Shown: positions 1 through 55,280, counted from the stretch's first letter. The stretch: 55,280 bases of DNA from a virus (IMGVR_UViG_3300025687_000004:1-55280); one strand, 5' to 3'. A program made the numbers and translations. Notes: generated by a model not told the origin, from the sequence alone.

Positions 1-127
1 ATTTTGTCCTCAGCAGAGGTGATTATCATAATAAGCACGAACCTCTATGGTATGCAGTTAGAAAAGGACAAAAGCATAACTGGCAAGGTCGTCGTGATCA
101 AACAACAGTCTGGGATATAGATAATAA
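1..127. repeat. Terminal direct repeat (127 bp), identical to 55154-55280; assembly circularisation overlap
   Basis: ATTTTGTCCTCAGC...GATATAGATAATAA occurs at both ends; 127 is a common assembler k-mer; a CDS reads in frame through the join. Confidence 0.95.
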
Positions 128-389
128 TAACTACGGAGCAAAGGCAAAAGAAGAGCAAACAGGTCATGGCACCCAAAAGCCTTTAGAATGTATGCTACGT
201 CCTATAATTAATAACAGTAAGAAAGGTCAGTCTGTATATGACCCATTCGGTGGTAGTGGTACAACGCTAATTGCTTGCGAAAAGTCAGACCGCAATTGTT
301 ACATGATGGAACTCTCACCAGCTTATGTAGATATCATAATTAATAGATGGGAAAAAGAAACTGGGAAGGAGGCGATACTAGATGAGTAA
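1..389 (+). CDS. 3' part of ParB-N/DNA N4-N6 methyltransferase (gene starts at 54346 and wraps)
   Basis: HGTQKP and SAM-binding YDPFGGSGTT...MELSPAYVD motifs; frame continuous with 54346. Confidence 0.9.
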   Translation, partial: FVLSRGDYHNKHEPLWYAVRKGQKHNWQGRRDQTTVWDIDNNNYGAKAKEEQTGHGTQKPLECMLRPIINNSKKGQSVYDPFGGSGTTLIACEKSDRNCYMMELSPAYVDIIINRWEKETGKEAILDE

Positions 390-1011
390 TACAAAAAACA
401 AAGGCGGGCGCCCACAAATAAAACTAGATGCATTACAGATCAGAGATATTGAAATTCTGGCTGCATTTTTACCTATTGCAAAAATAGCTGAGTATTTAGG
501 TATTTCTGTGGCAACTTTTCACAGATTAAAAACAAAAGATAGCGAAGTTTTGAGAGCTTATAAGCGGGGGGTAGCTAAAGCCCACGCACATGCTGGTAAT
601 ATTATTATGAAATTCATGAGATATGACGGCGATGATGTAGCACAATTACAATTACAGTTCCAAGCGGCAAAGTTTTACGTACAGACAAAAGCTGGCTGGG
701 GGAAGGAGGAGAAGGCGTTTAAAATAAATGTACCAGAAGAAGCGACCCCTTTAGAGATCATAAATATACTTACAAGCAGACTAAGCAATGAAGGCCTAAC
801 TCCAACAGAGTTCAAACAGCTAACCGATCTAGTTCAATTAAAGCAACAGGTACTATCGCTACAGCCCAAAGATGAACAGGCTACGCAATCACATACCCTT
901 GAAGAATGTATAGAGATCGCAGACAAGCTACTACCCGCCTCAAATATTCTAGAACTAGAGCTAGAGAACAGGAGGCTTAAAAAGCAACTTGCGGAGGCTG
1001 GCAATGCATAG
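382..1011 (+). CDS. HTH protein, probable terminase small subunit-like
   Basis: KGGRP N-terminus, HTH IAEYLGISVATF, AAKFYVQTKAGW motif typical of TerS-like proteins that follow ParB-MTase genes. Confidence 0.55.
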   Translation: MSNTKNKGGRPQIKLDALQIRDIEILAAFLPIAKIAEYLGISVATFHRLKTKDSEVLRAYKRGVAKAHAHAGNIIMKFMRYDGDDVAQLQLQFQAAKFYVQTKAGWGKEEKAFKINVPEEATPLEIINILTSRLSNEGLTPTEFKQLTDLVQLKQQVLSLQPKDEQATQSHTLEECIEIADKLLPASNILELELENRRLKKQLAEAGNA

Positions 1012-2041
1012 CTTAACATATAAAGTTCTAGATATATTTTCAGGAATTGGCGGCTTTTCCTTAGGCCTTGAAAAAGCAGGCATGGAAACAATAGCCTTTT
1101 GTGAAAATAATAATTTTTGTCAAGAAGTGCTAAAGACTCACTGGCATAACGTACCTATATTTTCTGATATTAGAAGCTTAGGAAAAAAAGACTTAAGCCA
1201 TTTACCCAAAATAGATGTAATTGCTGGTGGTTTTCCATGTCAGGATATTTCAGTAGCAGGAAAACAAGCAGGCATACAAGGTGAGCGTTCTGGGTTATGG
1301 AAAGAGTTTAAAAGATTAATAGATGAGGTAAAACCAAAATATGCAATTATCGAAAACGTGGCAAACTTGCGAAGTAGAGGACTTAGCCGAGTCCTCAAAG
1401 ATTTATGGGAGATCGGGTATGATGCAGAATGGCACCTGTTACCAGCTTCAGCCTTTGGTGCGCCTCACAGAAGGGATAGAATCTGGATTATTGCCTACCC
1501 CACTTGCTTCAGCAAAAGTAGATTGTCCGTCAGAAAGAAGAAGAGACAGCCCGCACCTAGAGACAATTGTAAAAATGCTACCAACGCCGACTGCGAGCGA
1601 TGCGACTGTGGGCAATGTAATAGGCAAGCACGATACGTTCAAAATAACAAAAAATGGGAATATCAGGAAATACAATCAAAACGGAATAAGCGGAAGTCTG
1701 GGGCTTGCAAGATATGTAAAGTTTTTTCCAACACCAACGCCAAGAGATCACAAGGACACGGGGAGTATAGAGAAGTTAGCACAATATGCACACAAAAAGC
1801 GTTTAATGCCAGTGCTAGCCAGTCAAGAGCTAATAACTGGAGACAAGAGCCAGTAGCAAGATTAGCAAGTACAAAAAATAACAAGGTAAGACTAAATCCT
1901 GATTGGGTTGAGTGGTTAATGGGTTATCCGCTTGGCTGGACTAAACAAGGAACCTTAAAAGAAAGGCTGCAAGGTTTAGGTAATGCAGTTGTTCCAGTAA
2001 TACCAGAATATTTGGGAAGAGAGATAATAGGCAATGCATAA
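1004..2041 (+). CDS. DNA (cytosine-5) methyltransferase, main frame
   Basis: Motifs I FSGIGG, IV GGFPCQ, VI ENV, VIII HRRDR, IX-like LNPDWVEWLMGYP, X GNAVVP; GGAGG at 993-997 before ATG 1004. Confidence 0.93.
   Translation: MHSLTYKVLDIFSGIGGFSLGLEKAGMETIAFCENNNFCQEVLKTHWHNVPIFSDIRSLGKKDLSHLPKIDVIAGGFPCQDISVAGKQAGIQGERSGLWKEFKRLIDEVKPKYAIIENVANLRSRGLSRVLKDLWEIGYDAEWHLLPASAFGAPHRRDRIWIIAYPTCFSKSRLSVRKKKRQPAPRDNCKNATNADCERCDCGQCNRQARYVQNNKKWEYQEIQSKRNKRKSGACKICKVFSNTNAKRSQGHGEYREVSTICTQKAFNASASQSRANNWRQEPVARLASTKNNKVRLNPDWVEWLMGYPLGWTKQGTLKERLQGLGNAVVPVIPEYLGREIIGNA
1341..1856 (+). CDS. Nested alternative-frame polypeptide (beta subunit-like) of the C5 methyltransferase
   Basis: 171-aa open frame inside the MTase with SGMMQNG and three (L/F)PTP repeats (LPTPLAS, LPTPTASD, FPTPTPRD); GAGGT at 1325-1329. 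Confidence 0.7.
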   Translation: MQLSKTWQTCEVEDLAESSKIYGRSGMMQNGTCYQLQPLVRLTEGIESGLLPTPLASAKVDCPSERRRDSPHLETIVKMLPTPTASDATVGNVIGKHDTFKITKNGNIRKYNQNGISGSLGLARYVKFFPTPTPRDHKDTGSIEKLAQYAHKKRLMPVLASQELITGDKSQ

Positions 2042-2288
2042 CAATAATACACTAGACTCAATAAGAAAATCTGACCCAGATTTTTATTATGAACACTTAC
2101 ACAAAAACCCTGACGAGTATCACGACTCCGCAAAAACAAAAAGCAAACTTAAACCGCATGAAATTGCGAAGTTAAAGAAAAGTCATGATTACTGGGAAAA
2201 TGCAAGGCTTAAAGCATGGGGGGAGCGTTTTAAGGAAGCTAAGAGAAAACGCAATAGTTCTAGTGAGGATTTTGAATATTTGCTATGA
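2034..2288 (+). CDS. Hypothetical protein
   Basis: 84-aa ORF overlapping the MTase stop; operon-like packing. Confidence 0.6.
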   Translation: MHNNNTLDSIRKSDPDFYYEHLHKNPDEYHDSAKTKSKLKPHEIAKLKKSHDYWENARLKAWGERFKEAKRKRNSSSEDFEYLL

Positions 2289-2587
2289 AAAGTAAAAGTC
2301 CTTATTTATCTATACTTCTTGCAAAAGATCAAGAACTAGAGGGGGTTTTTGACCTGAAGAATGATGCAATAGATGAACGTGACGCAATTATTGCTATAAA
2401 AAAACAACCATTGTCCTCCCAAGCAATGAAGTTGATATATGGTCGTGATGGAACACGCATAGGAAATCATTCAGTTAATAAAAAATTGAAGGAATGGAAG
2501 GCGGAATATTTAAAGCGCAAAGCCAAGCCTAAAAAGTATGAGCCTATGCTGTACTTTTTAGATTATTTTAATGGTATTAGTTTATAA
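2285..2587 (+). CDS. Hypothetical protein
   Basis: ATGA overlap with the previous ORF. Confidence 0.6.
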   Translation: MKSKSPYLSILLAKDQELEGVFDLKNDAIDERDAIIAIKKQPLSSQAMKLIYGRDGTRIGNHSVNKKLKEWKAEYLKRKAKPKKYEPMLYFLDYFNGISL

Positions 2588-3313: not shown

Positions 3314-3898
3314 TTAGGTTTCGGATTTGCAATGATTGTTGAGGTAGTAATATAGGGTTGAGCGTCCAATGCCATATTTTTTAGCTAAAGCTCCTTTATG
3401 TACTTTTGTAGTATCTGTTTCTTGAGCAAGGATAGACTTAATTTCTTCCGCTTGTTCGTCAGTTAATTTACGCATACGCTTATAAACCCCACGCTCTTTC
3501 GCCTTTGCAATGCCTTCAAGTTGGCGTTCTCGTATTAGGCCATGTTCAAATTCGGCAAAAGCCCCCATAAGAGAAAGCATAAGTTGTGACATGGGAGAGG
3601 AGCTACTAGTAAATTCTAAGCCTTCTTTTACAAAATTCACTTGAGCTTGTTTATCTGTAATAGTTTTAATAATACGGCGTAAGTCGTCTAGATTTCGTGC
3701 TAATCTATCCATACAATGTACATAAACAACATCGCCATCACGAACATAGTTAAGTAATTCTTCTAGTTTAGGGCGTTTAGTATCTTTGCCTGACGCATGA
3801 TCAGTGAAGATTAGATCAAGTTCTATGCCATCAAGTTGTCTTTCTGTATTTTGTAATTTAGTGCTAACTCTTACGTAGCCTATTTTTTTACCGGTCAT
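3314..3898 (-). CDS. Serine recombinase (resolvase/invertase family)
   Basis: IGYVRVST..Q, GDVVYV..MDRLARN, FAEFE..LIRERQLEGI, C-terminal HTH. Confidence 0.95.
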   Translation of the reverse strand: MTGKKIGYVRVSTKLQNTERQLDGIELDLIFTDHASGKDTKRPKLEELLNYVRDGDVVYVHCMDRLARNLDDLRRIIKTITDKQAQVNFVKEGLEFTSSSSPMSQLMLSLMGAFAEFEHGLIRERQLEGIAKAKERGVYKRMRKLTDEQAEEIKSILAQETDTTKVHKGALAKKYGIGRSTLYYYLNNHCKSET

Positions 3899-5084: not shown

Positions 5085-5318
5085 ATGAAAGCAATAAATG
5101 TACTTATTCCTGATGAGGCAAATCAAGAATTAATAAAATTCGCAAAAGCTCTGGATTTACCTAAAAGCTATTTAATAAAAAAGGCCATTAAAGAATATCT
5201 CATTGAGCTAAAAGAAGATATGGAGGATATTGCAGCAGCCGAAGAAGTGTTAGCTAATAGCACTGGTGAAACTATATCTTTAGAAGAATTTGAGAAAAAA
5301 TATGGTTTGGAAGATTAG
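5085..5318 (+). CDS. relB: RHH antitoxin (RelB/DUF6290-like)
   Basis: RHH N-terminus, acidic EDMEDI...ISLEEF C-terminus, overlaps the toxin gene. Confidence 0.85.
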   Translation: MKAINVLIPDEANQELIKFAKALDLPKSYLIKKAIKEYLIELKEDMEDIAAAEEVLANSTGETISLEEFEKKYGLED

Positions 5319-5571
5319 ACTAGAAAAACCTGCTGAAAAAGCAATTGCTAAATTAGATTATCAGACACAAAAGCAAATTAAAAATTATTTAAGGAATGAA
5401 GTATTACTATTGGATAATCCGCGTTTTAAAGGAAAAGGATTAACTGGTAAGAAAAAAGGGCTGTGGCGTTATCGTGTAAATAAATATCGAATTATTTGTC
5501 GCATAGAAAATGATATCCTCACCATTTTAGTATTGCAAATTGCCAAGCGTGATGTTGTATATGATGATTAG
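5302..5571 (+). CDS. relE: RelE/ParE-family toxin
   Basis: NPRFKGKGLTG...GLWRYRV..YRIIC...IAKRDVVY. Confidence 0.92.
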   Translation: MVWKIRLEKPAEKAIAKLDYQTQKQIKNYLRNEVLLLDNPRFKGKGLTGKKKGLWRYRVNKYRIICRIENDILTILVLQIAKRDVVYDD

Positions 5572-5859: not shown

Positions 5860-7470
5860 ATGTTAAACAACCTGCAATTAGAATCAGATTCTAGTATTGA
5901 ATCTATAATATCCCTTATGAAAAATATAGGGTTGCAGTTTCAAACTAAATGCTCATTCCATGAATTCATCAAGCAAGCATGGCCTGCAATTGAAGGTGGT
6001 GTTAGTTTTGTTGATAGCTGGCATATACAGGCGATAGCTGAACATTTAGAGGCTTGTTATCGTAGGGATATAAAGAAGCTCCTGATTAACATTCCTCCAA
6101 GAACTAGTAAAAGCACAATAGTATCTGTGATGTTTCCTGCTTGGGTATGGTTACATAATGCAGAAGAAAAGTTTCTCTACTCTTCTTATGCTGGTTCACT
6201 CTCAATAGAACATTCCTTAAAATGCAGAAGACTTATTGAGAGTAACTGGTATCAGGAACGTTTCGGTAGTTTGTATAAATTGTCTAAAGACCAGAAAGCC
6301 AAGGGATTTTTTGACAACAACAAGAAAGGGAGTCGTATCGCTACGTCTGTTGGAGCAAGTGCAACTGGTAAAGGCGGTAACTTCCTTATTGTAGATGATG
6401 GTAATAATGTGCAAGATGGGGAAAGTGAAGTCAAGCGTAATGCTGCTCTTGAGTGGTTAGATAGCGTATGGTCCACTCGGTTGAATAATCCTAAAAATGA
6501 CGTACAAATTATTATCCAACAGAGACTACACGAAGAGGATATGACAGGCCATGTTATAGATAAAGATATAAACAACGAATGGGTGAAATTAATTTTGCCT
6601 ATGGAATATGAAGAATCTAGAAAAGCTAAAACTATAATACTTCCATCAACTAATGGCAAAATCTGGCAAGACCCAAGAGAGGAAGAAGGTGAATTACTAT
6701 GCGAGCAAAGATTTTCACTTGAAGAGATTAATCAATATAAGTATAGATTAGGTTCGTATGGCTATGCTGGCCAGTATCAGCAAAGACCAGCACCAGAAGA
6801 AGGCGGTATAATCCAGAAATCATGGTTTAAATGGTGGAAGCATAACGAACCACCTGAAATACAATTCATAGTTCAGTCATGGGATACCGCTCTTACTGCT
6901 AATGAAATGTCCGCATATTCAGCCTGTACTACATGGGGAGTGTTTTTAGATCATAACTACGTAGAACATTTAATATTACTTGGAATGTGGCGTGGACGTG
7001 TTGAGTATCCAGAGCTTAGAGAGATGGCTAAAAGGCTTTATAGAGATTATAGAGATAATGGAAAAGAACATAATCCAAGGTTTAAAGGTAGACAACCTGA
7101 TTTATGTTTAGTTGAAGCTAAAGCCTCGGGCGATCCATTAATACAAGATTTAGCTGCGGGTGGAATAAGTGCCGTTGCTTTTAATCCTAGTAAATATGGT
7201 GATAAAATACAGAGAGTAAGGCTAGTTACTCCTCTTATTGAAGGGGGCAGGGTTTGGCTTAGAGCGAGAGGCCCTAAGTACGATAGTTTAATACCCGAAG
7301 CTGACGAATTTGTAGAAGAAGTATCAACGTTTCCTAATAGTTCTTCAAGGGATTTAGTGGATACTATGACGCAAGCATTGCTAAAATTAAAAAGCGGACA
7401 ATTTATATTAAACCCTAAGGATGAAAGGCCAACTCCACCTGATTATCAAGAGGTTAAAAGAGTATATTAA
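5860..7470 (+). CDS. terL: Terminase large subunit
   Basis: INIPPRTSKS Walker A, LIVDD Walker B, QSWDTA and DLVDTMTQAL nuclease motifs. Confidence 0.96.
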   Translation: MLNNLQLESDSSIESIISLMKNIGLQFQTKCSFHEFIKQAWPAIEGGVSFVDSWHIQAIAEHLEACYRRDIKKLLINIPPRTSKSTIVSVMFPAWVWLHNAEEKFLYSSYAGSLSIEHSLKCRRLIESNWYQERFGSLYKLSKDQKAKGFFDNNKKGSRIATSVGASATGKGGNFLIVDDGNNVQDGESEVKRNAALEWLDSVWSTRLNNPKNDVQIIIQQRLHEEDMTGHVIDKDINNEWVKLILPMEYEESRKAKTIILPSTNGKIWQDPREEEGELLCEQRFSLEEINQYKYRLGSYGYAGQYQQRPAPEEGGIIQKSWFKWWKHNEPPEIQFIVQSWDTALTANEMSAYSACTTWGVFLDHNYVEHLILLGMWRGRVEYPELREMAKRLYRDYRDNGKEHNPRFKGRQPDLCLVEAKASGDPLIQDLAAGGISAVAFNPSKYGDKIQRVRLVTPLIEGGRVWLRARGPKYDSLIPEADEFVEEVSTFPNSSSRDLVDTMTQALLKLKSGQFILNPKDERPTPPDYQEVKRVY

Positions 7471-8067: not shown

Positions 8068-8472
8068 TTATTCAAACTGTTTTATAAACGTTTCTTCAAT
8101 ATAATTTTCTAATTTATCGGCTAAAGATTCTACATCATTATCAAGAATAAAACTTTTACATAAAATACACGGCTTTGCATCGCTAATGTTAAATGACTTT
8201 AAATAGTTATCTTGTTTTTTTGAAATTTTATCTATAAACACAGGAAAATGTATAGGTATAGATTTTTCTATTGTTTTGCCAAATGGCTGAAAAATATTAT
8301 TTGTATTTTCAATACGAATTTTAAATTCCCTTCTACCTGAAACAATCAAATATTCGTTTGTTTGAACCAACACATCAACACAGCAAGGCGCTTTTAGTTT
8401 TCCTGCGTCATGTATCATTTCTTCTAGTTTGTTTATTAATGTTTTGTTATTAGCGGGCTTTTTCAAAGTCAT
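8068..8472 (-). CDS. Hypothetical protein (moron, opposite strand)
   Basis: ORF between terL and portal; likely start MTLKK at 8472. Confidence 0.5.
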   Translation of the reverse strand: MTLKKPANNKTLINKLEEMIHDAGKLKAPCCVDVLVQTNEYLIVSGRREFKIRIENTNNIFQPFGKTIEKSIPIHFPVFIDKISKKQDNYLKSFNISDAKPCILCKSFILDNDVESLADKLENYIEETFIKQFE

Positions 8473-8479
8473 TTTTACC

Positions 8480-8490
8480 TGTGGTATAAT
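8480..8490 (+). promoter_or_regulatory. Extended -10 promoter
   Basis: TGTGGTATAAT 22 nt before the portal ATG. Confidence 0.6.
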
Positions 8491-8512
8491 AGTGAATAAG
8501 AATATTTGTTTT

Positions 8513-11198: not shown

Positions 11199-11389
11199 CT
11201 TTATACGAACGCCTAATGAAAGAGCTTAAAACAGCAAGGACTAACCTTGAAACTACTATAGCTCAAGGGCAAGTTGAAGATTTTCCAAGTTATAAATTCA
11301 AAGCTGGGCAAGTAAATGGACTTGTTGCAGCTATGGATATTTGTAGAACAACTTTTAAAGAGTGTGATGATGAATATATCAGCAATTAA
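11195..11389 (+). CDS. Conserved phage hypothetical protein
   Basis: VEDFPSYKFKAGQVNGL pattern, typically found just before GroES-like genes. Confidence 0.65.
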   Translation: MTLYERLMKELKTARTNLETTIAQGQVEDFPSYKFKAGQVNGLVAAMDICRTTFKECDDEYISN

Positions 11390-11804
11390 AGCAAGTAATA
11401 ATCAAGATATAGGAATAGACCTAAATACTTTTGATGAAAAAGCAAAGCAAGCAGAAATAGCTCGTTTTAAAGATTTAACACCTTCTGGTTGGCAATTATA
11501 CATAAGACTATATGTGCCTCCAGCAAAAACATCAGGTGGTATTTTACTGCCCGATTCTACAAAGGACGAACAAAAATACTTAAATTTTGTTGGTTTAGTA
11601 GTAGCTATGTCAAAAGGTGCTTACAAGGACGATAGATACAAGTTTACAGGTCCATATTGTAAAGTAGGTGATTGGGTTAATTTCCCAAGACATGCAGGTT
11701 ATTTATGGGCATACGATAATATCCCAATGTATGCATTAAATGAAGATGTAATAACGGGCGTTATTGATAATCCTAAGCACAACATTCCATTAATTTCTAA
11801 ATAA
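11367..11804 (+). CDS. groES: GroES-like co-chaperonin
   Basis: PSGWQLYI, KTSGGILLPD, VVAM, CKVGDWV.F.RHAG, LNEDVI. Confidence 0.85.
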   Translation: MMNISAIKASNNQDIGIDLNTFDEKAKQAEIARFKDLTPSGWQLYIRLYVPPAKTSGGILLPDSTKDEQKYLNFVGLVVAMSKGAYKDDRYKFTGPYCKVGDWVNFPRHAGYLWAYDNIPMYALNEDVITGVIDNPKHNIPLISK

Positions 11805-16536: not shown

Positions 16537-16590
16537 ACATTAAGCAATTATTTGCTTAAATTTATTATTAATTCAAGAGCGTTTATAATT

Positions 16591-36465: not shown

Positions 36466-36474
36466 TCTAGCCGC

Positions 36475-37998: not shown

Positions 37999-38009
37999 AA
38001 TCACCTCAA

Positions 38010-38231: not shown

Positions 38232-38235
38232 ATTT

Positions 38236-38451: not shown

Positions 38452-38453
38452 AA

Positions 38454-43881: not shown

Positions 43882-44054
43882 TTACGTCTAGTGTCGGATT
43901 AAAAATAATAGGTATTTAGACATCAATAAGCAAATACTCATATCAGTCAAGCAGTATATACGTATAACTGTATTTACGTAACACGAATTAGTTGCAAAAA
44001 CTCCTTATATAAACTATATTGGTCGCTATTTTATTTTACGAAAAAAAGTATTAC

Positions 44055-45415: not shown

Positions 45416-46822
45416 TTATTTCTTATCCTTCAACTGACTATTAATACCGATAGGTTTGAGCAATTCCCATTTGTCTAAAACGTGATGAAATATTATAAGG
45501 CATAATATATCCACACACAAGGCTATCGTATTAATATTTAATTCTGTCTTTATAACAAAATTGCAAAACAATATAAAAGATGCAGAAGAGATTGTTGATA
45601 ATATAAAAGTCCTTGTTGATAGATTGTAGCCTAAAATTATGGCTATTAATGGAGCGGTAATAATAGGAGTGTAAAAATTATGAGCAAATAATATTAAATG
45701 CAATAACTCTCCTTGATATAAATAGAATCCTATAGAAAGCAATCCAATAAAAGCAGAGCTATACCTTGCAATCCTCAATTTCTCTCCAGATGAAAAGTTT
45801 TTGAAATACGGAAAATCGTGAGCAATTAAAACGGCTGCAATATTAATATTAGAATCTGCTGTAGACATACACATACATACTACAGCTATAATCAATAACG
45901 CCTTTGACCCAGGGATGTCAAAAACATCTAACAAGCTATGGAAAAGTTTCTCATTAGGAATGTTAGGGTCTAATTTATATAAATAATACGCAAAAATAGC
46001 ACTAAAAAAAACAATTAATCCTAGACCTAAGCTAGCGAGAAAATAAGAGTTTTTAACTTGTTTTATAGATACTCCCATTGCAATTCGTTGTATAACATGA
46101 GGAGAAAAGGCTGGTATTAGAAAATAACAAAACAACAAGAAAGAATCAAACAAGGTGCTGTTATCTAGTGTAGCTATATAACCTAACTGAAAATGATCTG
46201 GCACAGGACTGTTTGGGCTAGAAGAACTTGTTTTTGTATACAAAATACCTATACCGATCAGCAGCGCTGCAAAAAAACAACAGGCTTGTATTTTGTCTGT
46301 TTGGACAACTGAATTTATTCCTCCAATTGACGAATATAAAATCACTATGGAAGAGCTTATTAAAATACAAGTTATCTCGTTTAAATCAGGGAATATATAA
46401 TTAATTGCCAATCCCATAATTTTAAATTGAATATATATACCACTTGATACTAAAAATACTCCACAAAATGCAGTTAATGTTCTTGCGTGTTCTCCGTATT
46501 GCTCTCCCATGATTTGAGCAACAGAAACTTTGTGTAAAAATTTATGCATTTTTGGAACAAAGTACAAAGATACCAACATTAAAGTCCCGCATATTCCACA
46601 TATAGAAAAAGCGTAAATAATTCCTTGGGAATAAAACTTAGATAAGTTGATATTAAAACCACTACCGCTGACCCAAGTTGCAGTTACAGTAGAGGCTAAA
46701 GCTAAAGTCGAGAAACTCTTGTTACCTAAAGAAAAGCTATTGATGTTACTGGGGTTATTAAAAGAGTATACAGAGTAGCCAATCAAATATAAGAAAAAAG
46801 TGCTTAATAAAATTTCGTTCAT
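45416..46822 (-). CDS. Sodium:solute symporter (PutP-like SSS family)
   Basis: Many TM helices; F.LGNK.FST..L..TV.ATWVSGS, YS.IGG..SVV.TD..Q, QRI.M, MSTADS. Confidence 0.9.
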   Translation of the reverse strand: MNEILLSTFFLYLIGYSVYSFNNPSNINSFSLGNKSFSTLALASTVTATWVSGSGFNINLSKFYSQGIIYAFSICGICGTLMLVSLYFVPKMHKFLHKVSVAQIMGEQYGEHARTLTAFCGVFLVSSGIYIQFKIMGLAINYIFPDLNEITCILISSSIVILYSSIGGINSVVQTDKIQACCFFAALLIGIGILYTKTSSSSPNSPVPDHFQLGYIATLDNSTLFDSFLLFCYFLIPAFSPHVIQRIAMGVSIKQVKNSYFLASLGLGLIVFFSAIFAYYLYKLDPNIPNEKLFHSLLDVFDIPGSKALLIIAVVCMCMSTADSNINIAAVLIAHDFPYFKNFSSGEKLRIARYSSAFIGLLSIGFYLYQGELLHLILFAHNFYTPIITAPLIAIILGYNLSTRTFILSTISSASFILFCNFVIKTELNINTIALCVDILCLIIFHHVLDKWELLKPIGINSQLKDKK

Positions 46823-47847: not shown

Positions 47848-48783
47848 ATGGAACTACATATAGATAAAGAGTTAGAGGAGTTTATCCCACCCTTAACAGA
47901 AAAGGAGTTTAGCAGTTTGTCGCTTTCTATTAAAGCTAATGGCTGTCATGATAATATAAAAGTTTGGCATCGTAGCGATGGTAGTCTTGATACTATTGTT
48001 GATGGGCATAATAGATATAAAATATGCCAGCAATTAAAAATTCCTTTTAAAATCACACGTATGAAATTTGCGGATAAGTCAGACGTTATGAGGTGGATGT
48101 ACAGCGAGCAGGGTTCTAGGCGCAATTTAAATACAGCTCAATTATTAGAGTTGCACTCTAAGTTGCAAGTATATTTAGAGAAATTTGCAAGAGAACGTCA
48201 ATTGGCTAACCTAAAACAAAATAAGACAATAACTGAAAAGGTAGGAGATAACACTAAAGCACCGAGTCTGCCATTTGGCAGACTCGGTGGTGAGACAGCA
48301 GAAGAAGTGGGTAAAAAAACAAACACTAGCACAAGAACAGTCTATCGTTTTAACGAGATAATGAAAAAAGGCACGGAGGAGCAAAAAGCCGATCTTCGTT
48401 CAGGTAAAAAAAAGATAGGTACTGTCTACAAAGAAATTAAAGCAAAAGAAAAACCAAAATCCCATTCCCTCAATTTGAGGGAGACCCTAGTGCCACGTGG
48501 CACTCCAACTAACGAGAATGACATCGAAAAGTTGCTAAAAGGCAAAGATATAAATACTCCGTATTTACTTCTTTATTCTAAAAAGGACAAAGAAACTGGT
48601 GAGGAAATGCGTGCTTGTTTATCTAACTGTGAACCAAAAGCAAATTTAATGACTTGCCGAGATTATATAATGGAAACATCTCATGGCAATTGTCCTGAAG
48701 ATGACTTTGTCCAATTAAAAATAGCCTTAAGGCGTATGATTGATGGGGTTGTTTTTAAGGAGGTAGCCAATGCGCAAGACTAA
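47848..48783 (+). CDS. ParB-N + HTH protein
   Basis: IPPLT..EF..L..SI...G, IVDGHNRY.IC, RRNL, HTH TAEEVGKKTNTSTRTV. Confidence 0.85.
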   Translation: MELHIDKELEEFIPPLTEKEFSSLSLSIKANGCHDNIKVWHRSDGSLDTIVDGHNRYKICQQLKIPFKITRMKFADKSDVMRWMYSEQGSRRNLNTAQLLELHSKLQVYLEKFARERQLANLKQNKTITEKVGDNTKAPSLPFGRLGGETAEEVGKKTNTSTRTVYRFNEIMKKGTEEQKADLRSGKKKIGTVYKEIKAKEKPKSHSLNLRETLVPRGTPTNENDIEKLLKGKDINTPYLLLYSKKDKETGEEMRACLSNCEPKANLMTCRDYIMETSHGNCPEDDFVQLKIALRRMIDGVVFKEVANAQD

Positions 48784-49208: not shown

Positions 49209-50076
49209 AAAAATACCTAATAGTTGGAAGTCTATTAGAAGATATGACCAGCCAACCAAAACGCTTTCACCTAAGGCTATTGAGATATTGGCTGTGGCTA
49301 TGTATCAGGTGAACAAATACAATCAAGCTATTTTGACACATAAAGTGTTGAAGGAAATTACTGATAGAAAAAAACGCCAGAATCGTAATTTAGTGAATGA
49401 GCTAGGCTTTATTTTTAATCTGGAATTTTCACGCTGTTTAGTTGAAGGTAAGAAAAAATATAACGACGCTTACAAACTAACATTCACAAAAAATGCAGCC
49501 GAAATCTTAGAAAATCCTGAAGACTATTTTGCTGAATTTGAGGATGATATTTTAACAAAACAAGGCAGCAAAATAGAGCAGCAAAACGACAAAAAAGATG
49601 GGGCAATAGATGGGGCAATGAATATTGAGACATCGGGCAATTTTACCTCATCAGAATCAAAAGATCGGGCAATAAATTGCGCTACATCGGGCAATAAATT
49701 ACCTGACATGAGGCAAAAAATTACCCCATCTCAAGAATTGCTACATATATATATAAAAAAACTAATATATATAACAAATAAAAAAACTAATGTAGATGTG
49801 GACATTGATTTATACATGCTCATAAAGTCCATGAATTGGAGCAGTCTTTTTTCTCAAAATACTCCAGAACAAATTGAAGCATTTTCTCAATTCATAGCTA
49901 AGAAATCTCCTTTTGATTTTGATAACAAAGATGACTCACCAGCAGCTTATAGAGATTTGCATGAGATAGACACCATGGACAAACTAAGAACACGCTATCT
50001 GACAGAATTTCAAAAAATAGGAATGGCAGAAGCTAAGAGAGAATACGAAGAAAACATGAAGAGGTTTAAATGTTAG
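49192..50076 (+). CDS. Probable replication initiator (lambda O-like organisation)
   Basis: Directly upstream of dnaB and contains internal iterons plus an AT-rich tract. Confidence 0.65.
   Translation: MKQQYKKIPNSWKSIRRYDQPTKTLSPKAIEILAVAMYQVNKYNQAILTHKVLKEITDRKKRQNRNLVNELGFIFNLEFSRCLVEGKKKYNDAYKLTFTKNAAEILENPEDYFAEFEDDILTKQGSKIEQQNDKKDGAIDGAMNIETSGNFTSSESKDRAINCATSGNKLPDMRQKITPSQELLHIYIKKLIYITNKKTNVDVDIDLYMLIKSMNWSSLFSQNTPEQIEAFSQFIAKKSPFDFDNKDDSPAAYRDLHEIDTMDKLRTRYLTEFQKIGMAEAKREYEENMKRFKC
49598..49790. repeat. Iteron array plus AT-rich region (putative origin)
   Basis: AT(C/G)(G/A)GGCAA(T/A) at 49598, 49610, 49632, 49664, 49686, 49708, then an AT-rich tract at about 49745-49790. Confidence 0.75.
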
Positions 50077-51467
50077 AAGCGTCTGATCTACAACGCAAAT
50101 ACGATGACATGTTGAAACATGATGTAGACCATGAACAATTAGCTATAGGTTGCATGGTAACATCAGAGTTTGGATTATCTCAATGTTGCAAACTTCTAAA
50201 TGCAGAAGATTTTGCAGTCAAGCATAGTAGAAAGCTCTTTGATATAATCAGAAGTTCTTATGAACAAGGAGACGATTTTAACGACTGTTATGCAAAAATA
50301 ACATGTATTAGCGAATCAGATTGGAAAGCTGTTGATTCACAAATGCCAATCAGCAGAGCAGAATATGTCAGGCAGTGCTTAATGAAAGCAATGAATATTT
50401 TGAAGGTCGAGAACCAGGTCAATAGCATAATCAAGCGAATAAAGGAACAATCGGCTAGACGCTATTTATGCATAAGAAATCAGCAGTTTGTAGAAGAGCT
50501 TCTTGATACAACAAACCCTAAACCATTTGCAAGTGTTGTTAATTCTATAATGGAAGATAGCAAACAAAAGCTGGAAGAAATAGCAGATTCCGAAGAGGAG
50601 GAAGATTTTAAAACCATGGCTTTAAGAGTCTTGAATACCAAGGAAGAAAAAGCAATCAGTACAGGTTTTAAAGGCTTAGACCATATAATCGATGGATTCA
50701 AAAAAGGTCAGTTAATTACTATTGGAGCAGGTACGGGAATGGGAAAGAGTGCCTTTGCTGTAAATCTTGCAATAAACATTATTAAACAGGGTCATGGCGT
50801 TGCACTTTGGTCGTTTGAAATGGACGAAAGAGAAGTATTGCAGCGTTTGTTTTCAGTGGTCACTAGGATATCACAAAAAAAAGCGTCAAGTGATCCAAGG
50901 TATGGTGAAGAAAGATACAATAGAATTATGAAATTTTTTGATGAGGTAAAACATGGTTTAACTCTACGTACTAAGCCGATCAAAGATTTAGGAGTTTTTT
51001 ATCTTGATTGTCAAAAGGGAATAAAACAGAAAGACCTCAAAGTAGTAATTATTGATTACTTGCAGTTAATCCATTTATCACGAAGTGGAAAAACAAACAG
51101 AGTAGCTGAAATAGAATATATAACAAACAACTTTAAGAATATAGCAAATGAGCTTGGAATTGCGATTATCATACTTTCCCAGTTATCAAGAGAGCATACA
51201 AGAAGAGAAGATAAAACGCCTATTTTATCCGATCTTAGAGATTCTGGCTCAATCGAACAAGATTCAAACGTTGTTATGTTTTTAGGAAATCTCGATCTAA
51301 AAGACACCGGTAATGCTGTGCTAGGGCAATACGATAAACCTATGTGTTTATGGGTGGCTAAGAATAGATCAGGTAGCACTGGAGCAGTAAAGTTCAAATA
51401 TATTGGATATATAACTGAGTTTACTGAGCTAGTAACAAATAATGACAATGCCATGGTGGCTTGTTGA
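50070..51467 (+). CDS. dnaB: Replicative DNA helicase
   Basis: GAGTGMGKS, FEM, IIDYLQL, LSQLSR, DLRDSGSIEQD, KNRSG. Confidence 0.95.
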   Translation: MLEASDLQRKYDDMLKHDVDHEQLAIGCMVTSEFGLSQCCKLLNAEDFAVKHSRKLFDIIRSSYEQGDDFNDCYAKITCISESDWKAVDSQMPISRAEYVRQCLMKAMNILKVENQVNSIIKRIKEQSARRYLCIRNQQFVEELLDTTNPKPFASVVNSIMEDSKQKLEEIADSEEEEDFKTMALRVLNTKEEKAISTGFKGLDHIIDGFKKGQLITIGAGTGMGKSAFAVNLAINIIKQGHGVALWSFEMDEREVLQRLFSVVTRISQKKASSDPRYGEERYNRIMKFFDEVKHGLTLRTKPIKDLGVFYLDCQKGIKQKDLKVVIIDYLQLIHLSRSGKTNRVAEIEYITNNFKNIANELGIAIIILSQLSREHTRREDKTPILSDLRDSGSIEQDSNVVMFLGNLDLKDTGNAVLGQYDKPMCLWVAKNRSGSTGAVKFKYIGYITEFTELVTNNDNAMVAC

Positions 51468-51492: not shown

Positions 51493-52623
51493 ATGGACTT
51501 AAAAATAAATGAAGAATTTAAGTCCCTCATTCCAAGTTTGACCGCTGAAGAATACGAGGGACTAGAAGCAAGCATAATTCAAGAAGGATGCCGAGATAAA
51601 ATAGTAACTTGGAAAGGTTACATTATCGACGGACACAACCGCTATGAAATATGCAATAAACATAGTATAGCATTTGAGGTTTTAGAAAAAGACAATTTTG
51701 AAACCGAAGCTGATGTTAAGCTGTGGATGATCAATAACCAGTTCAACCGCCGTAATTTACCTATAGCAACAAGAATGAAGCTGGCATATAGGTTTAAGGA
51801 GATAGAGGCTGAGAAGGCTAAACTTCGTCAATCAAATTTGTCTAATTTGAAGCAATTTCAAAACGATGTTACTGCAATACCGGTTAGTGCACCGGTGCAC
51901 ACACCGGACGAAAAAACAAATGGCCGCACTTTAGAAGTTATAGCAAAAATGGCCGGAGTAAGTGCTAGAACTGCTGATCAATACGACAAAATCCAACGCA
52001 AAGGCACAGAAGCACAAAAAGCTCAAGTGGATTCTGGCGATTCTAGTATTAAGAAAGTCTATACTCAAATACAAAGAGCCGAGCGTTTAGAAAAGAACCA
52101 AGCTACAGAATGGCCAAAAGGTAAATACAGAATAATATACGCTGACCCACCTTGGAAATACGACGATGAACGTTCTGGCATGGGCGGAGCAATTGATCAA
52201 TACGATCTTATGGACTTAGAAGACATAAAAGCATTGCCAGTCAAAGATTTAGCTGAAACTGATGCTGTATTGTTTATGTGGGCTACCGCTCCATTGCTTA
52301 AGGAAGGCATAGAAGTAGTAGAATCGTGGGGATTCAAATACAAAACACATGTGATTTGGAATAAGACAAAAGGCCTTAACGGGCATTATGTTTCACCAAG
52401 ACACGAGCTTTTATTTATAGCGACAAAAGGCAGCTGTACTCCTGATACAAAAGACCGCCCTAATTCAGTACAAACTATTGAGCGTACAGGTCGTCATTCA
52501 GAGAAGCCAGAAGAATTTAGGGAAATCATTGAAACGCTGTATACCTATGGCAATAAAGTAGAGCTATTTGCACGTACAGCACCAGAGGGATGGGGGGCTT
52601 ATGGTAACGAAATCAGAAGGTAA
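51493..52623 (+). CDS. ParB-N/HTH fused to MT-A70 adenine methyltransferase
   Basis: IDGHNRYEIC, HTH; IIYADPPW, LFMWAT, WGFKY, HSEKPEE, ELFAR. Confidence 0.92.
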   Translation: MDLKINEEFKSLIPSLTAEEYEGLEASIIQEGCRDKIVTWKGYIIDGHNRYEICNKHSIAFEVLEKDNFETEADVKLWMINNQFNRRNLPIATRMKLAYRFKEIEAEKAKLRQSNLSNLKQFQNDVTAIPVSAPVHTPDEKTNGRTLEVIAKMAGVSARTADQYDKIQRKGTEAQKAQVDSGDSSIKKVYTQIQRAERLEKNQATEWPKGKYRIIYADPPWKYDDERSGMGGAIDQYDLMDLEDIKALPVKDLAETDAVLFMWATAPLLKEGIEVVESWGFKYKTHVIWNKTKGLNGHYVSPRHELLFIATKGSCTPDTKDRPNSVQTIERTGRHSEKPEEFREIIETLYTYGNKVELFARTAPEGWGAYGNEIRR

Positions 52624-53635
52624 TCGTTTATATCAAGAACGCTTGATTCCAGCGCAACGATTTCAAGATCATTGTGCATATTGGATACAACAAACCTTAC
52701 ACATAACTATCGGTAATTTTCAAAGTAAAGATTATCAATTTAAATTCGGGGAAAACCCTCAAGGAGTTGAAATAAAACATGATATGCAGTTTGCAAAAAC
52801 TGGTAATTTATGGATAGAGGTAAGGCACAGAAAGAACACAGAAGAAAAATATTACAATGGTGGAATAATGAGAGCAAATAATACTTGGCTTTATGCAATT
52901 GGTAATTATGAAGAGCTGTATCTTTTTTCTGTTAAAGGGTTAAGAAATATTTTAAACGAAAAACAGTATGAAATTAAATCAAACAATCTAGATACATCAC
53001 AAGGTTTTCTACTATCAAAAAAAGATGCCGAGTATTATTGCGCTGCAAAAATAGAAACATACGATATCGTCAAGAAAGATGATTATAAAATCAACGTTGA
53101 TATAGATGAATTAGATTTTGACGAATCAAACGCTAACAACCGTCCAAATAAAGATTTTGATGGGTACGTTAATGGCAAGTTAGTGTCTTTTAAAATGGAA
53201 AAGAGAACTTTTGCAAAGCCTAGATTTAAAAATGATTTTGCTGATGATGTAGTACAAAAAGTGTGTATGTTTAACTTTGTAATAGAAGGAAAATCCGAAC
53301 CTATAAAGATGTCCAGAATGACGGGTACTAAGATCAACACCGAAGCAAAACATGTAAAAGCCAAGGGTAGAGGCAAGAAGGAACAAGAGGAATATAACGC
53401 TTTAACTGAAATGTGTATTAAGTTGGGTATTTTTAATATACAAGATGTAAGAGATGATAATACTAAAACTCTACTAGAGAATTTAAACAACGCTTGCAAA
53501 ACTATTTCAGAAGAGAACCCTATTTATATAAAAACTAAATTAGAGAGGTGTGAAAAATCTTACAACCTTGAAAATATAGATATTTCAACTATTAAACTAA
53601 CAAACATGGAGAATAAAAATGTCATCACTAAATAA
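52601..53635 (+). CDS. PD-(D/E)XK nuclease-like domain fused to an unknown C-terminal domain
   Basis: GVEIKHD....TGNLWIEV motif in the N-terminal half; start MVTKS overlaps the MTase end. Confidence 0.6.
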   Translation: MVTKSEGNRLYQERLIPAQRFQDHCAYWIQQTLHITIGNFQSKDYQFKFGENPQGVEIKHDMQFAKTGNLWIEVRHRKNTEEKYYNGGIMRANNTWLYAIGNYEELYLFSVKGLRNILNEKQYEIKSNNLDTSQGFLLSKKDAEYYCAAKIETYDIVKKDDYKINVDIDELDFDESNANNRPNKDFDGYVNGKLVSFKMEKRTFAKPRFKNDFADDVVQKVCMFNFVIEGKSEPIKMSRMTGTKINTEAKHVKAKGRGKKEQEEYNALTEMCIKLGIFNIQDVRDDNTKTLLENLNNACKTISEENPIYIKTKLERCEKSYNLENIDISTIKLTNMENKNVITK

Positions 53636-54059
53636 AGTAACATTAATTGGAAACCTAGGAAAAGACCCAGAAATTAGAACTACTGGAGATGGCAAAGAAA
53701 TTGCCAATTTCAGTATTGCCACAAGTGAAACCTGGAAAGATAAAACAACAGGAGAGAAAAAAGATAAAACCGAATGGCATAGGGTCGTATGTTTCAATGA
53801 AGGCTTAACACGAGTAATAAAAAGCTACGTAAAAAAAGGCAGCAAGATATACGTTGAAGGCCAGCTACAAACTAGAAAATGGACGAATCAAGAAGGGCAA
53901 GAAGCGTATACAACAGAAGTTATCTTGCAAAATTATAATTCTAGTTTAGTTATGCTTGATTCTAAAGGCGACAATGCGCCACAAGGAGCTAATAGCACAA
54001 ACGTAGTAAATAAGCCAGAATTTAAAAATGAAGAACTGGATGATGAAATACCATTTTAA
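53619..54059 (+). CDS. ssb: Single-stranded DNA-binding protein
   Basis: LNKVTLIGNLGKDPE...TEWHRVV...EGQLQTRKW...DDEIPF. Confidence 0.97.
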   Translation: MSSLNKVTLIGNLGKDPEIRTTGDGKEIANFSIATSETWKDKTTGEKKDKTEWHRVVCFNEGLTRVIKSYVKKGSKIYVEGQLQTRKWTNQEGQEAYTTEVILQNYNSSLVMLDSKGDNAPQGANSTNVVNKPEFKNEELDDEIPF

Positions 54060-54064: not shown

Positions 54065-54247
54065 ATGGCAATACTTAAAGACATCATCTACACAATATAC
54101 TTGCTAAGTTTTAGCCTACCATTCTTTAAATTGCTGCAAATACCAGTAATAAAAGAATGGTCATGGCTGACAGTAATAGCACCATTTTGGGCAACAACCT
54201 GTATAGGATTGATTGTTGGTTGGTTTATGTTGTTGTTTAAAAAATAG
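54065..54247 (+). CDS. Small membrane protein
   Basis: FKLL...I.EWSWL.V.APFW pattern, two hydrophobic segments. Confidence 0.6.
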   Translation: MAILKDIIYTIYLLSFSLPFFKLLQIPVIKEWSWLTVIAPFWATTCIGLIVGWFMLLFKK

Positions 54248-54317
54248 CTCATGAAATAGCGTTACGGAAATTCTCGTAACGGCTTTAACTCAAAGGCCAA
54301 TCTTCTTACTTTTTAGC

Positions 54318-54328
54318 TGTGGTATAAT
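54318..54328 (+). promoter_or_regulatory. Extended -10 promoter
   Basis: TGTGGTATAAT 17 nt before ATG 54346. Confidence 0.6.
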
Positions 54329-54345
54329 AAAAAAGAAAAAATCAC

Positions 54346-55280
54346 ATGCTAAATTGGACATCTAAAACTATTCAAATATCAGAATTAAAAGAATATGAGC
54401 ATAATCCCCGCAGGATAGGCAAAAAAGAATTTGAGAAATTAGTAAGCTCTATAAAACAAGATGGCTACCACCAGCGCATCATAGTCAATCAAGATAATGT
54501 TATTATAGGTGGACATCAGCGTAAGAAAGCTCTACTTGAAGCTGGTTTAAAAGAAACTGATACAGTAGAAGTTCTTATTCCAGATCGCAAGCTTACTCAA
54601 GAAGAATTAGACCGCATTAATATAAGAGATAACTTATCATTTGGTGAGTATGATTTTGATATACTTGCTAACAGATTTAATGTTGAAACTCTTGTAGATT
54701 TCGGTTTGCCTGGAGATATGCTAGTTGATTTTGATGATGATAATCTACTCGCTGATTCAGAGTATAGCCCAGAATTAGAAACTCTACCAGTAGAGCCTAA
54801 AGCAAAATTAGGCGATGTATATATATTAGGTAATCATCGCCTGATGTGCGGAGATAGTACCAATCCACATCATGTAGATAAACTCTTAAATGGTGTAAAT
54901 CCAATATTAATGGTAACTGACCCACCTTATGGAGTTAACTATAATCCAGAGTGGCGGGAGGAAGTAGATAAAGGAGATAGAAACACAGGCAAAGTATTAA
55001 ACGATGATAGATATGATTGGAGTGATGCATATGCATTATTTACAGGAGATATTGCATATATTTGGCACCCAGCATCCTATACACATAGGTTTGCAGAAAG
55101 TATAGAAAATAACGGATTTGACCTAATTAACCTTATTATCTGGAATAAACAGCATTTTGTCCTCAGCAGAGGTGATTATCATAATAAGCACGAACCTCTA
55201 TGGTATGCAGTTAGAAAAGGACAAAAGCATAACTGGCAAGGTCGTCGTGATCAAACAACAGTCTGGGATATAGATAATAA
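54346..55280 (+). CDS. ParB-N domain + DNA N4/N6 methyltransferase (5' part; continues to 389, 398 aa total)
   Basis: Translated by eye: YEHNPR...IIGGHQR (ParB), GNHRLMCGDST, MVTDPPYG; missing from the ORF track because it wraps. Confidence 0.9.
   Translation, partial: MLNWTSKTIQISELKEYEHNPRRIGKKEFEKLVSSIKQDGYHQRIIVNQDNVIIGGHQRKKALLEAGLKETDTVEVLIPDRKLTQEELDRINIRDNLSFGEYDFDILANRFNVETLVDFGLPGDMLVDFDDDNLLADSEYSPELETLPVEPKAKLGDVYILGNHRLMCGDSTNPHHVDKLLNGVNPILMVTDPPYGVNYNPEWREEVDKGDRNTGKVLNDDRYDWSDAYALFTGDIAYIWHPASYTHRFAESIENNGFDLINLIIWNKQHFVLSRGDYHNKHEPLWYAVRKGQKHNWQGRRDQTTVWDIDN
55154..55280. repeat. Terminal direct repeat (copy of 1-127)
   Basis: Exact match to the window start. Confidence 0.95.

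Follow-up and report, generated by a model that had tools for sequence, protein, structure and literature searches.

What kind of element is a circular viral genome that carries a set of head and tail genes beside a plasmid-type replication initiator, and in which bacterium does it reside? This question is raised by IMGVR_UViG_3300025687_000004, an IMG/VR virus record of 55,280 bases, which we call the window and which denotes the whole stretch of DNA analysed. A sequence-only reading had proposed a phage-plasmid of a Rickettsiales endosymbiont with a podovirus-like virion. We made several conclusions. First, the window is the complete genome of an uncultured tailed phage. In addition, its virion genes are, judged by sequence, of the HTVC023P/CRP-901 podovirus type. 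Judged by gene content and by the form in which its members were deposited, the family to which it belongs is a well-founded phage-plasmid lineage, and the window itself is probably a phage-plasmid despite missing the partition ATPase ParA. Finally, the most likely host, as far as the relatives indicate, would be a Megaira-like Rickettsiaceae bacterium in freshwater protists.

The closed circle described from the sequence alone was borne out by the ends of the record.

1..127, no strand: terminal direct overlap, identical to 55154-55280, marking the circular assembly
54346..55280, continuing at 128-389 across the junction, plus strand: ParB_N-domain and N6/N4 DNA methyltransferase (phrog_498, 247 bits)

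The 127-nt overlap is exact, and IMG/VR classes the record as having direct terminal repeats (CheckV completeness 100). It falls within the methyltransferase gene, which reads through the junction and encodes 398 aa once circularised. Therefore, where the window begins and ends is arbitrary; the unit is either a circle of 55,153 bp or a population of circularly permuted molecules. A length of 127 is a common assembler k-mer size, and the relative G315 likewise has a 127-nt overlap. The GC content per 2 kb was 0.29-0.41; a tRNA scan of the window found none and an Rfam scan gave no family match. Near-identical sequence was present in freshwater metagenome runs from several studies, and one run that is not the likely source covered all 30 bins of 30001-50000, its longest pieces without differences. 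None of the runs listed with matching sequence was of RNA. Gene comparisons were based on 78 non-overlapping open reading frames (ORFs) of the window, with genes in common scored at E<=1e-5 unless stated otherwise, and gene families were assigned with Pfam, PHROGs and NCBIfam.

The complete-looking virion module noticed earlier was confirmed at 5653-34339 on the plus strand. Besides TerL, portal, GroES-like protein and capsid protein, it encodes a pair of SU10-type adaptors, the tail fibres, a patatin-like lipase and several large internal proteins.

5860..7470, plus strand: terminase large subunit (TerL; phrog_38, 295 bits)
8429..10834, plus strand: portal protein, SU10 type (Pfam and PHROGs)
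11316..11804, plus strand: GroES-like protein in the head module (same placement in HTVC023P, CRP-901 and the Megaira plasmids)
15637..16536, plus strand: major capsid protein (35-46% to the HTVC023P group; 85% in G001 contig L008; 56% in the Bealeia plasmid)
16552..17637, plus strand: protein resembling SU10 adaptors and carrying a discoidin (F5/8 type C) domain (41% to a CP113869.1 protein annotated as 'Discoidin domain-containing protein')
19145..23145, plus strand: tail-fibre genes (19145-21043, 21074-21499 and 21499-23145; PHROGs), the first with an N-terminus like that of the MAnkyphage fibre
24755..34339, plus strand: remaining virion genes, with a second SU10 adaptor (28203-28826), a structural protein (28823-30406) and probable large internal or ejection proteins

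TerL matched 2,338 of 50,697 phage records, with Roseobacter phage CRP-901 as the best match (42.7%). The portal matched 18 phage records and the capsid protein 22, all from the HTVC023P, CRP-901, Caulobacter RW or Planktothrix Pag-Yong1 group. The identities of TerL, portal and capsid protein to the closest cultured phages, the HTVC023P/CRP-901 group, were 26-46%, and the virion is thus of the aquatic podophage type that had been suggested. Nine of the 78 ORFs were in common with CRP-901 and seven with HTVC023P, all in the virion core; none of the 49 non-virion genes was in common with either phage. A megablast of window positions 1-25000 against phages gave no match. The HTVC023P-type pelagiphages, roseophages CRP-901/902, Caulobacter RW and Planktothrix Pag-Yong1 have a homologous virion core and a genome size similar to that of the window, in which the head and tail core of the type (TerL, portal, GroES-like protein, capsid protein and adaptors) is represented by nine core ORFs. 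They differ from the window in having their own DNA polymerase or primase, recognisable lysins and free-living hosts, and in lying outside the endosymbiont clade of the portal tree described below. No DNA polymerase or primase family was found in any window ORF with Pfam or PHROGs, and the polymerase/primase-helicase module of the cultured members is absent from the window.

Instead of that module, the window carries a plasmid-type replication initiator (Rep) with a helicase and a single-strand DNA-binding protein (SSB).

41521..41799, minus strand: MarR-like winged-helix regulator, divergent from the Rep gene (45%; pPCS109 is arranged alike)
42101..43513, plus strand: replication initiator, 470 aa, with an N-terminal winged helix-turn-helix domain and a conserved core bearing LNAMNEILLDMS
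50070..51467, plus strand: DnaB-type replicative helicase (214.7 bits; 45% in the AWTP1-34 contig)
53619..54059, plus strand: SSB (127 bits)

Rep matched 21 records among the 72,556 plasmids of PLSDB, 11 of Candidatus (Ca.) Megaira/Megaera and 10 of Rickettsia, and nothing else; it had no match in the 50,697 phage records. Its identity was 39-51% to Megaira proteins, and that of its central domain was 27-33% to Rickettsia plasmid initiators. The sequence-only reading had named a DnaA_N-like protein with the motif NAMNEILLDMS, attributed to Rickettsiaceae. The motif is located in this 470-aa protein, LNAMNEILLDMS was exact in eight of the nine aligned Rep family members, and homology to annotated DnaA-like proteins on Rickettsia and Megaira plasmids was found; the DnaA_N domain was the part of the claim that failed. 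Pfam recognised a weak winged helix-turn-helix alone (residues 73-112), and DnaA_N (PF11638) was not detected in the window Rep even at E<=10. This domain was found in one of the nine aligned family members and is often present in the atlas neighbours of the window Rep. Rickettsia plasmids with 'DnaA-like' initiators (pRF, pRM and others) have the homologous central domain in common with the window, but they carry the Pfam DnaA_N domain, ParA and, in many cases, conjugation genes, and are without virion genes.

Rep residues 13-164 matched AP017966.1 (48%), Bandiella and several IMG/VR contigs, and the conserved core (residues 230-467) matched other loci; Rep is therefore modular. Compared with the closest relative of the window (G305), the gene is conserved in its first 49 nt and its core only. 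Rep was found in 10 of 151 genomes of a Rickettsiales sample and in one of 151 genomes of a phylum sample drawn around a metagenome-assembled genome (MAG) titled Bacteroidota (G001), the one being G001 itself. All five genomes reached from the portal scan also had Rep homologues, and a Rep alignment search of IMG/VR returned 48 contigs with the same initiator, a count to be read as at least 48.

The evidence for a Rickettsiales host is good though indirect, and it agrees with the host lineage that the sequence-only reading had assigned. The three best plasmid matches of TerL were Megaira plasmids (50-52%, above any of the 50,697 phages), and the fourth was pBealeia1 of Ca. Bealeia. The portal matched three of the 72,556 PLSDB plasmids, two of Megaira and one of Bealeia. 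A portal-alignment scan of genome contigs, with one genome per prokaryote species, returned 50 loci. The identity was 43-44% in Ca. Bandiella numerosa, Ca. Megaera venefica, two Rickettsiales MAGs and a 3-kb contig in a 'Saccharibacteria' bin, 66% in one contig of the 'Bacteroidota' MAG G001, and at most 37% in all others, which were MAGs of many phyla.

For the portal tree, 137 tblastn hits were reduced to 131 with ORFs of at least 550 aa and then to 66 rows, comprising all passing genome rows, IMG/VR loci L058-L072, four cultured phages and three plasmids; L051 and L052 were too short and fell out. In this quick LG+G4 maximum-likelihood tree, in which long branches (Bealeia) and odd composition were flagged in clade rows, an 11-row clade around the window had a support of 100 in the Shimodaira-Hasegawa-like approximate likelihood ratio test (SH-aLRT). 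The named members of the clade are Ca. Megaira plasmids, M. venefica, Ca. Bandiella, a Rickettsiales MAG, a Ca. Bealeia plasmid and one 'Bacteroidota' MAG bin, and no row outside it is labelled Rickettsiales or Holosporales. Within the clade, the window forms a four-row subclade together with the 'Bacteroidota' contig and two contigs from IMG/VR. As its sister, this subclade has Bandiella, M. venefica, AWTP1-34, one IMG/VR contig and two Megaira plasmids, and Bealeia is basal. The portals of Ca. Bandiella numerosa Ewo1 (L009) and Ca. Megaera venefica (L010), which represent two families of Rickettsiales, have almost the same sequence, with end branches of 0.035 and 0.038; this may reflect either recent transfer between co-resident symbionts or contig cross-assignment in mixed symbiont assemblies.

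Gene content and composition pointed in the same direction. The ORFs in common with the window numbered 31 of 78 for Megaira CP113869.1, 31 of 78 for the AWTP1-34 contig, 27 of 78 for a 50-kb part of pPCS109, 14 of 78 for the Bealeia plasmid and 12 of 78 for the Megaira phage MAnkyphage (13 at E<=1e-3). Combined, the Rickettsiales-linked elements matched 42 of the 78 ORFs, compared with nine for the cultured relatives. Synteny with the AWTP1-34 contig (62.7 kb) extends over most of the window; the flanks of the contig hold a tRNA synthetase and transporters, and also ParA and a porin as in Megaira plasmids, which fits a chromosome or a plasmid. In tetranucleotide usage, the window correlated with M. 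venefica contigs at 0.905 and with bulk contigs of G001, compared at equal GC content, at 0.535. Nine Rickettsiales genomes had a median correlation of 0.725 and nine genomes from the G001 phylum sample one of 0.30, a contrast that is confounded because the latter are mostly high in GC.

The closest named systems are plasmids. In CP113869.1 (Ca. Megaira polyxenophila NDG2) and pPCS109 (AP017967.1, 109 kb), the genes for TerL, portal, GroES-like protein, capsid protein, discoidin adaptor, fibres and internal proteins are ordered as in the window. Both plasmids also have in common with it RuvC, RecT, YqaJ, the divergent MarR/Rep pair, the C5 methylase, the ParB-methylase and the patatin; over all ORFs in common, the mean identity is 42%. 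Unlike the window, the Megaira plasmids carry ParA, group II introns and insertion sequence (IS) elements, and pPCS109 adds metabolic cargo and a decaying module. They are without the window's DnaB, SSB, symporter and outer-membrane protein, and their patatin gene stands after the fibres and not before them. A literature search (without supplements) found no account of plasmid-borne phage modules or phage-plasmids in Megaira, and a prior description is possible.

MAnkyphage_25.80 (OP381185.1), a phage of Megaira polyxenophila and the one Megaira phage described so far, resembles the window in host lineage, a GC content of ~34% and a circular record. Both have a patatin gene directly before a tail fibre, related fibre N-termini, a small serine resolvase, RelB/RelE, a CCDC90-like protein and YqaJ (47%). 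MAnkyphage differs in its size (38 kb), T7-like tail tubular proteins, ankyrin genes, lysozyme, transglycosylase and a different initiator, and its TerL, portal and capsid protein had no match to the window at E<=1e-3. In the excerpts available, MAnkyphage is cited in PMC10925606, virus-like particles in Ca. Trichorickettsia appear in PMC7721670, and phage-plasmids are raised in PMC9560607 merely as a possibility for Wolbachia plasmids.

The plasmid pBealeia1 (NZ_CP133271.1, L004) of Ca. Bealeia, a Holosporales host, is the basal member of the clade. Its portal (37%), capsid protein (56%), GroES-like protein and adaptors follow the order of the window. It differs in that its TerL is split into three pieces and in encoding a PriCT-type primase, a RecD helicase and RebB, the latter six times. 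The six RebB (R-body) genes lie together with the portal, GroES-like and capsid genes of this lineage (2344-4635 and 30825-44877). By sequence, pBealeia1 is a concrete link between R-body plasmids and this phage lineage.

Given a virion module of phage type and an initiator of plasmid type, the state in which the genome persists is the central question. The genes that bear on it are as follows.

3314..3898, minus strand: small serine recombinase of resolvase/invertase type, C-terminal helix-turn-helix, 194 aa (Pfam Resolvase, 121 bits)
5085..5571, plus strand: RelB antitoxin and RelE-ParE toxin pair (both above NCBIfam cut-offs)
43195..44012, plus strand: segment with the end of the Rep gene and a 123-aa ORF (43510-43881), at the place of the ParA cassette of G305
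47848..48783, plus strand: stand-alone ParB/Srx-like domain protein, not a partition ParB (paralogue of the N-terminus of the MT-A70 methylase)
51493..52623, plus strand: ParB-like N-terminal domain and MT-A70 adenine methyltransferase (Pfam, PHROGs)

The absence of an integrase claimed from the sequence held up: neither a tyrosine integrase nor a large serine integrase was found in the 79 translated frames of the window, and the sole recombinase is the 194-aa serine resolvase/invertase, which is 95% identical in G305 and 29% identical to the MAnkyphage resolvase. It likely resolves multimers. The claim of a resolvase with a WGR protein stood for the resolvase only, as 3895-4407 had no Pfam WGR hit even at E<=5 and no ORF contains a WGR tripeptide. 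RelBE was upheld, since RelB scored 52.9 (cut-off 50) and RelE 31.7 (cut-off 27.9) and the genes are adjacent and overlapping; the identities to the MAnkyphage pair were 40% and 55%. The search for integrated copies that had been suggested revealed no convincing integration junction and no att-flanked copy in assembled metagenome contigs, where many joints and loose ends traced to diverged relatives at 85% likeness. An IMG/VR 'provirus' of 35 kb (G306, L249-L250) was considered as an integrated copy and rejected, as it has no housekeeping flanks and looks plasmid-like. It carries full-length Rep (45%), ParA, DnaB, methylases, HU, leucine-rich repeat, tetratricopeptide repeat and Fic proteins and PD-(D/E)XK transposases, and no virion genes within its 35 kb.

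That no ParA could be recognised had also been noted, and this was correct. No window ORF has a ParA-type Walker A motif, and tblastn of the window with the ParA of G305 gave nothing (best E 0.38). The ParB domains reported earlier are real, but they lose their value as plasmid evidence: two are the N-terminal domains of DNA methyltransferases, the third is the stand-alone paralogue, and none has a ParA partner. The relatives present another picture. G305, the closest of them, has 42 of the 78 ORFs in common and 22 kb aligned at 88% nucleotide identity, and directly after Rep it carries a cassette in which two small ORFs (96 and 81 aa) accompany a 262-aa ParA (KGGVGKT). The nucleotide homology ends at 43194 and restarts at 44013, and in between the window has only the 123-aa ORF. 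Small ORFans follow the C5 methylase gene of the window, at the position where Megaira-type relatives have ParA. Among the 15 largest Rep-bearing IMG/VR records, 13 have a ParA-type ATPase and 12 a portal of this type, and three are circular assemblies of 56-59 kb with Rep, ParA and the virion module; among the six that are at least 90% complete, all have the portal and five have ParA. CP113869.1 is a closed 64.4-kb Megaira plasmid in which the module is complete and is accompanied by Rep, ParA, IS elements and group II introns, and pPCS109 holds a decaying copy of the module with a transposase inside.

The window without ParA means that its plasmid maintenance is reasoned from relatives, and episomal persistence, the style of life proposed by the sequence-only reading, is accordingly assigned to the window as a probable property. 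Of the hallmarks of a phage-plasmid, it has an intact structural and packaging module (TerL, portal, capsid, adaptors and fibres) and a plasmid-type initiator, and is without a partition system. P1, N15 and SSU5 are phage-plasmids with a partition system. The window is likened to them by gene content and not by sequence: it combines virion genes with a plasmid replicon, has no integrase, carries genes for addiction and for the resolution of multimers, and has relatives that are extrachromosomal. It differs from them in its podovirus-type virion, its presumed obligately intracellular host and the missing partition system.

All three genes considered as cargo had been named from the sequence.

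17988..19148, plus strand: patatin-like phospholipase with an intact Ser-Asp dyad (Pfam PF01734)
35223..35924, minus strand: small outer-membrane beta-barrel protein, whose best family match, Rickettsia adhesin Adr, is below the cut-off
45416..46822, minus strand: sodium:solute symporter (SSF) family transporter, cargo (44% in G001:C27)

The patatin was verified (Pfam 91 bits, cut-off 27.7). Its motifs DGGGxRG, GxSxG (S51) and DGG (D210) do not vary between the window, MAnkyphage and two Megaira plasmids, and MAnkyphage alone among the 50,697 phage records has a homologue. The gene occurred in 10 of the 15 large Rep-bearing IMG/VR records, namely in every Megaira-type member and in none of the window's nearest relatives, and the Megaira phages have it in three distinct gene settings. 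The stop of the window gene and the tail-fibre start overlap by 4 nt. The best curated matches were lipases of the CBASS (cyclic-oligonucleotide-based antiphage signalling system) type, below cut-off. A role of the patatin in phage entry or release is speculation. The symporter belongs to the SSF family, and the likeness to PutP that had been claimed is weak; its seven plasmid matches are three of Megaira, one of Rickettsia, two of Cardinium and one of Oceanisphaera. The beta-barrel surface protein proved by Pfam to be an outer-membrane beta-barrel, and it is probably lysogenic-conversion cargo. Its family was found in 32 of 151 Rickettsiales genomes, compared with two of 151 genomes in the G001 phylum sample, where one of these finds is on a G001 phage contig. 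The full-length match to Rick_Adr (NF052636) scored 106.7 bits, below the cut-off of 210, and the protein was not assigned as the adhesin Adr.

Taken together, the reading we favour, with moderate confidence, is that of an intact tailed phage with a plasmid-style replicon that persists as an episome in a protist-dwelling symbiont of Rickettsiales type. The head and tail genes would descend from the HTVC023P/CRP-901 aquatic podophages, of which a side branch may have settled in obligate intracellular alphaproteobacteria of protists, both Rickettsiales such as Ca. Megaira and Holosporales. The phage DNA polymerase/primase module would have given way in this branch to a plasmid-style replicon, a Megaira/Rickettsia-type initiator presumably under the divergent MarR-like regulator together with DnaB and SSB. 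As the window has these three proteins and no polymerase module of its own, the host polymerase would copy the DNA. After infection, the genome, which has no integrase, would circularise and persist as an episome; the serine resolvase would resolve multimers, RelBE would kill segregants and three methylases would protect the DNA. The cargo (outer-membrane barrel, symporter and patatin lipase) may act on the symbiont or on its eukaryotic host. Upon induction, TerL would package the DNA into podovirus particles.

Several observations weigh against this reading. The window has neither ParA nor any other partition ATPase, and G307, a complete member of its subclade, is likewise without ParA. Neither repressor nor lysis genes were recognised in the window, and the iteron search near Rep gave weak two-copy families in AT-rich DNA, which we took as chance. 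A circular assembly is equally expected of a virulent phage with permuted or redundant ends. The near-identical sequences come from freshwater metagenomes, with smaller shares in marine ones, which alone is no pointer to a symbiont. The Rick_Adr match stands at half of the curated cut-off, and the model also scores below cut-off in E. coli and Caulobacter. Finally, the window's four-row subclade carries no Rickettsiales label; its one labelled member lies in the MAG called Bacteroidota, which is without the ATP/ADP translocase that the four Rickettsiales genomes tested have.

These points feed first of all an account that appears unlikely to us but deserves to be weighed, namely a virulent or pseudolysogenic phage of Rickettsiales-type hosts that borrowed Rep from host plasmids for lytic replication and forms no stable plasmid. 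It would explain why the window lacks the ParA that 13 of its 15 relatives have, why no repressor was recognised, and why the genome is compact, without the IS elements or introns of the Megaira plasmids; the circle could be an assembly artefact of terminal redundancy, and MAnkyphage, which is described as a phage, has a similar set of resolvase, RelE and initiator. This account is opposed by RelBE, the resolvase and the cargo (outer-membrane protein and symporter), all typical of resident elements, and by the theta-type initiator in place of the polymerase module of the cultured relatives. The Rep-ParA cassette in the nearest relative (88% nucleotide identity over 22 kb) and the closed plasmids among the family members count against it as well.

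It is more doubtful still that the host is a free-living aquatic bacterium, for example of the Bacteroidota, and that the resemblance to Megaira came about by gene exchange only. The idea derives from the closest relative in the genome collection, which lies on at least three contigs of the Bacteroidota-titled MAG (portal 66%, capsid protein 85%, TerL 61%, Rep 51%, symporter 44%). This MAG has no ATP/ADP translocase and its bulk is therefore not an energy parasite, and the phage is present in open freshwater metagenomes. Identical portals were found in a Rhodospirillaceae MAG and in a Methanobacteriota archaeon MAG (L014, L038), so phage contigs were binned into unrelated genomes and bin labels are unreliable for these phages. 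The tetranucleotide correlation of the G001 phage contigs was 0.48 with their own bulk, compared with 0.85 with M. venefica. Among the other 150 genomes of the G001 phylum sample, none had Rep and one had the outer-membrane protein, and no PLSDB plasmid outside Megaira or Rickettsia has Rep.

The weakest alternative, a plasmid with a defective, gene-transfer-agent-like or R-body-associated phage remnant that yields no infectious particles, is suggested by the decaying pPCS109 and Bealeia plasmid relatives (a transposase inside the module; TerL in three pieces) and is hardly credible for the window, whose virion genes in common with cultured relatives are all uninterrupted and tightly overlapping, whose CheckV completeness is 100 and of which identical copies occur in several independent metagenomes.

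Beyond the reading of an intact episomal phage, we tentatively put forward a wider proposal, which is possible rather than probable. The HTVC023P-type branch might consist of resident, still transmissible phage-plasmids of protist Rickettsiales and Holosporales, shuttling cargo (adhesin-like outer-membrane proteins, transporters and R-body genes) between unrelated cohabiting symbionts, and the fibre-coupled patatin might be a virion or release factor that crosses eukaryotic or bacterial membranes. To our knowledge, very few phages are known from Rickettsiales, and Rickettsiales are hard to manipulate genetically. The family joins a plasmid replicon of the Megaira/Rickettsia kind, a complete packaging and particle module and cargo that faces the eukaryotic host. 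With at least 48 IMG/VR contigs that carry the same initiator and several deposited 'plasmids', it could explain the movement of plasmid genes between protist symbionts, it ties R-body plasmids to a concrete phage lineage, and it could supply parts for transduction-type tools. If this wider proposal holds, the window would be an intact working member, usable as a natural vector for bacteria almost without genetic tools. The fibre-linked patatin gene is a testable lead on the entry and exit of a phage of an intracellular bacterium; Wolbachia phage WO faces a two-membrane problem, to which the patatin, if it does serve in crossing membranes, would offer a second and independent solution.

The rest of the genome fits into three blocks. 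The virion block is followed by a minus-strand block (34342-41929) with a Q-rich coiled-coil protein, the outer-membrane barrel, RuvC, HU, RecT, YqaJ exonuclease, a Tad2-like protein and the MarR-like regulator. The plus-strand block from 42101 encodes the initiator, the stand-alone ParB/Srx-like protein, DnaB, the ParB-like and MT-A70 protein, SSB, the ParB_N and N6/N4 methylase and the C5 methylase; the SSF symporter within it sits on the minus strand, and the small serine resolvase and RelBE come after it. The features that remain are listed below.

989..2041, plus strand: C5 cytosine DNA methyltransferase (Pfam 194.6 bits; 58-60% to Megaira, AWTP and Bandiella homologues)
35950..39377, minus strand: recombination block with RuvC-like resolvase, HU, RecT and YqaJ-type exonuclease (44-65% to Megaira plasmid homologues)

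The ParB_N and N6/N4 methylase is 62-64% identical to its homologues in Megaira CP113869.1, the AWTP1-34 contig and Bandiella. PADLOC flagged only the methylases and the lipase in the window. Across the genome, searches with Pfam, PHROGs and NCBIfam turned up no gene for an endolysin, holin or spanin; CRP-901, HTVC023P and MAnkyphage have annotated lysins.

Several minor observations were made. Two runs labelled as coded single organisms and not as metagenomes (X8 and X16) contain diverged relatives over window 30001-50000; in one of the two, the contig depth was ~385 over the virion, RecT/YqaJ and Rep parts and zero over the outer-membrane protein and symporter regions. A Tad2-like (Thoeris anti-defence 2) domain protein is encoded at 40378-40620 on the minus strand (Pfam 36.9 bits, cut-off 25); Megaira plasmid CP113870.1 has a homologue of 43% identity. 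Beside the outer-membrane protein gene, 34342-35220 (minus strand) encodes a 292-aa Q/N-rich coiled-coil protein without family match; its G305 homologue is just 32% identical and the neighbours are ~90% identical, which suggests fast-evolving cargo. Between TerL and the portal (7471-8042), there are two tandem small ORFs of 119 and 71 aa, with no homologue among the relatives examined. In both, a run of CCC lies close to the N-terminus and is succeeded by a stretch rich in lysine, a pattern that resembles the signals for lipidation or membrane targeting in eukaryotes.

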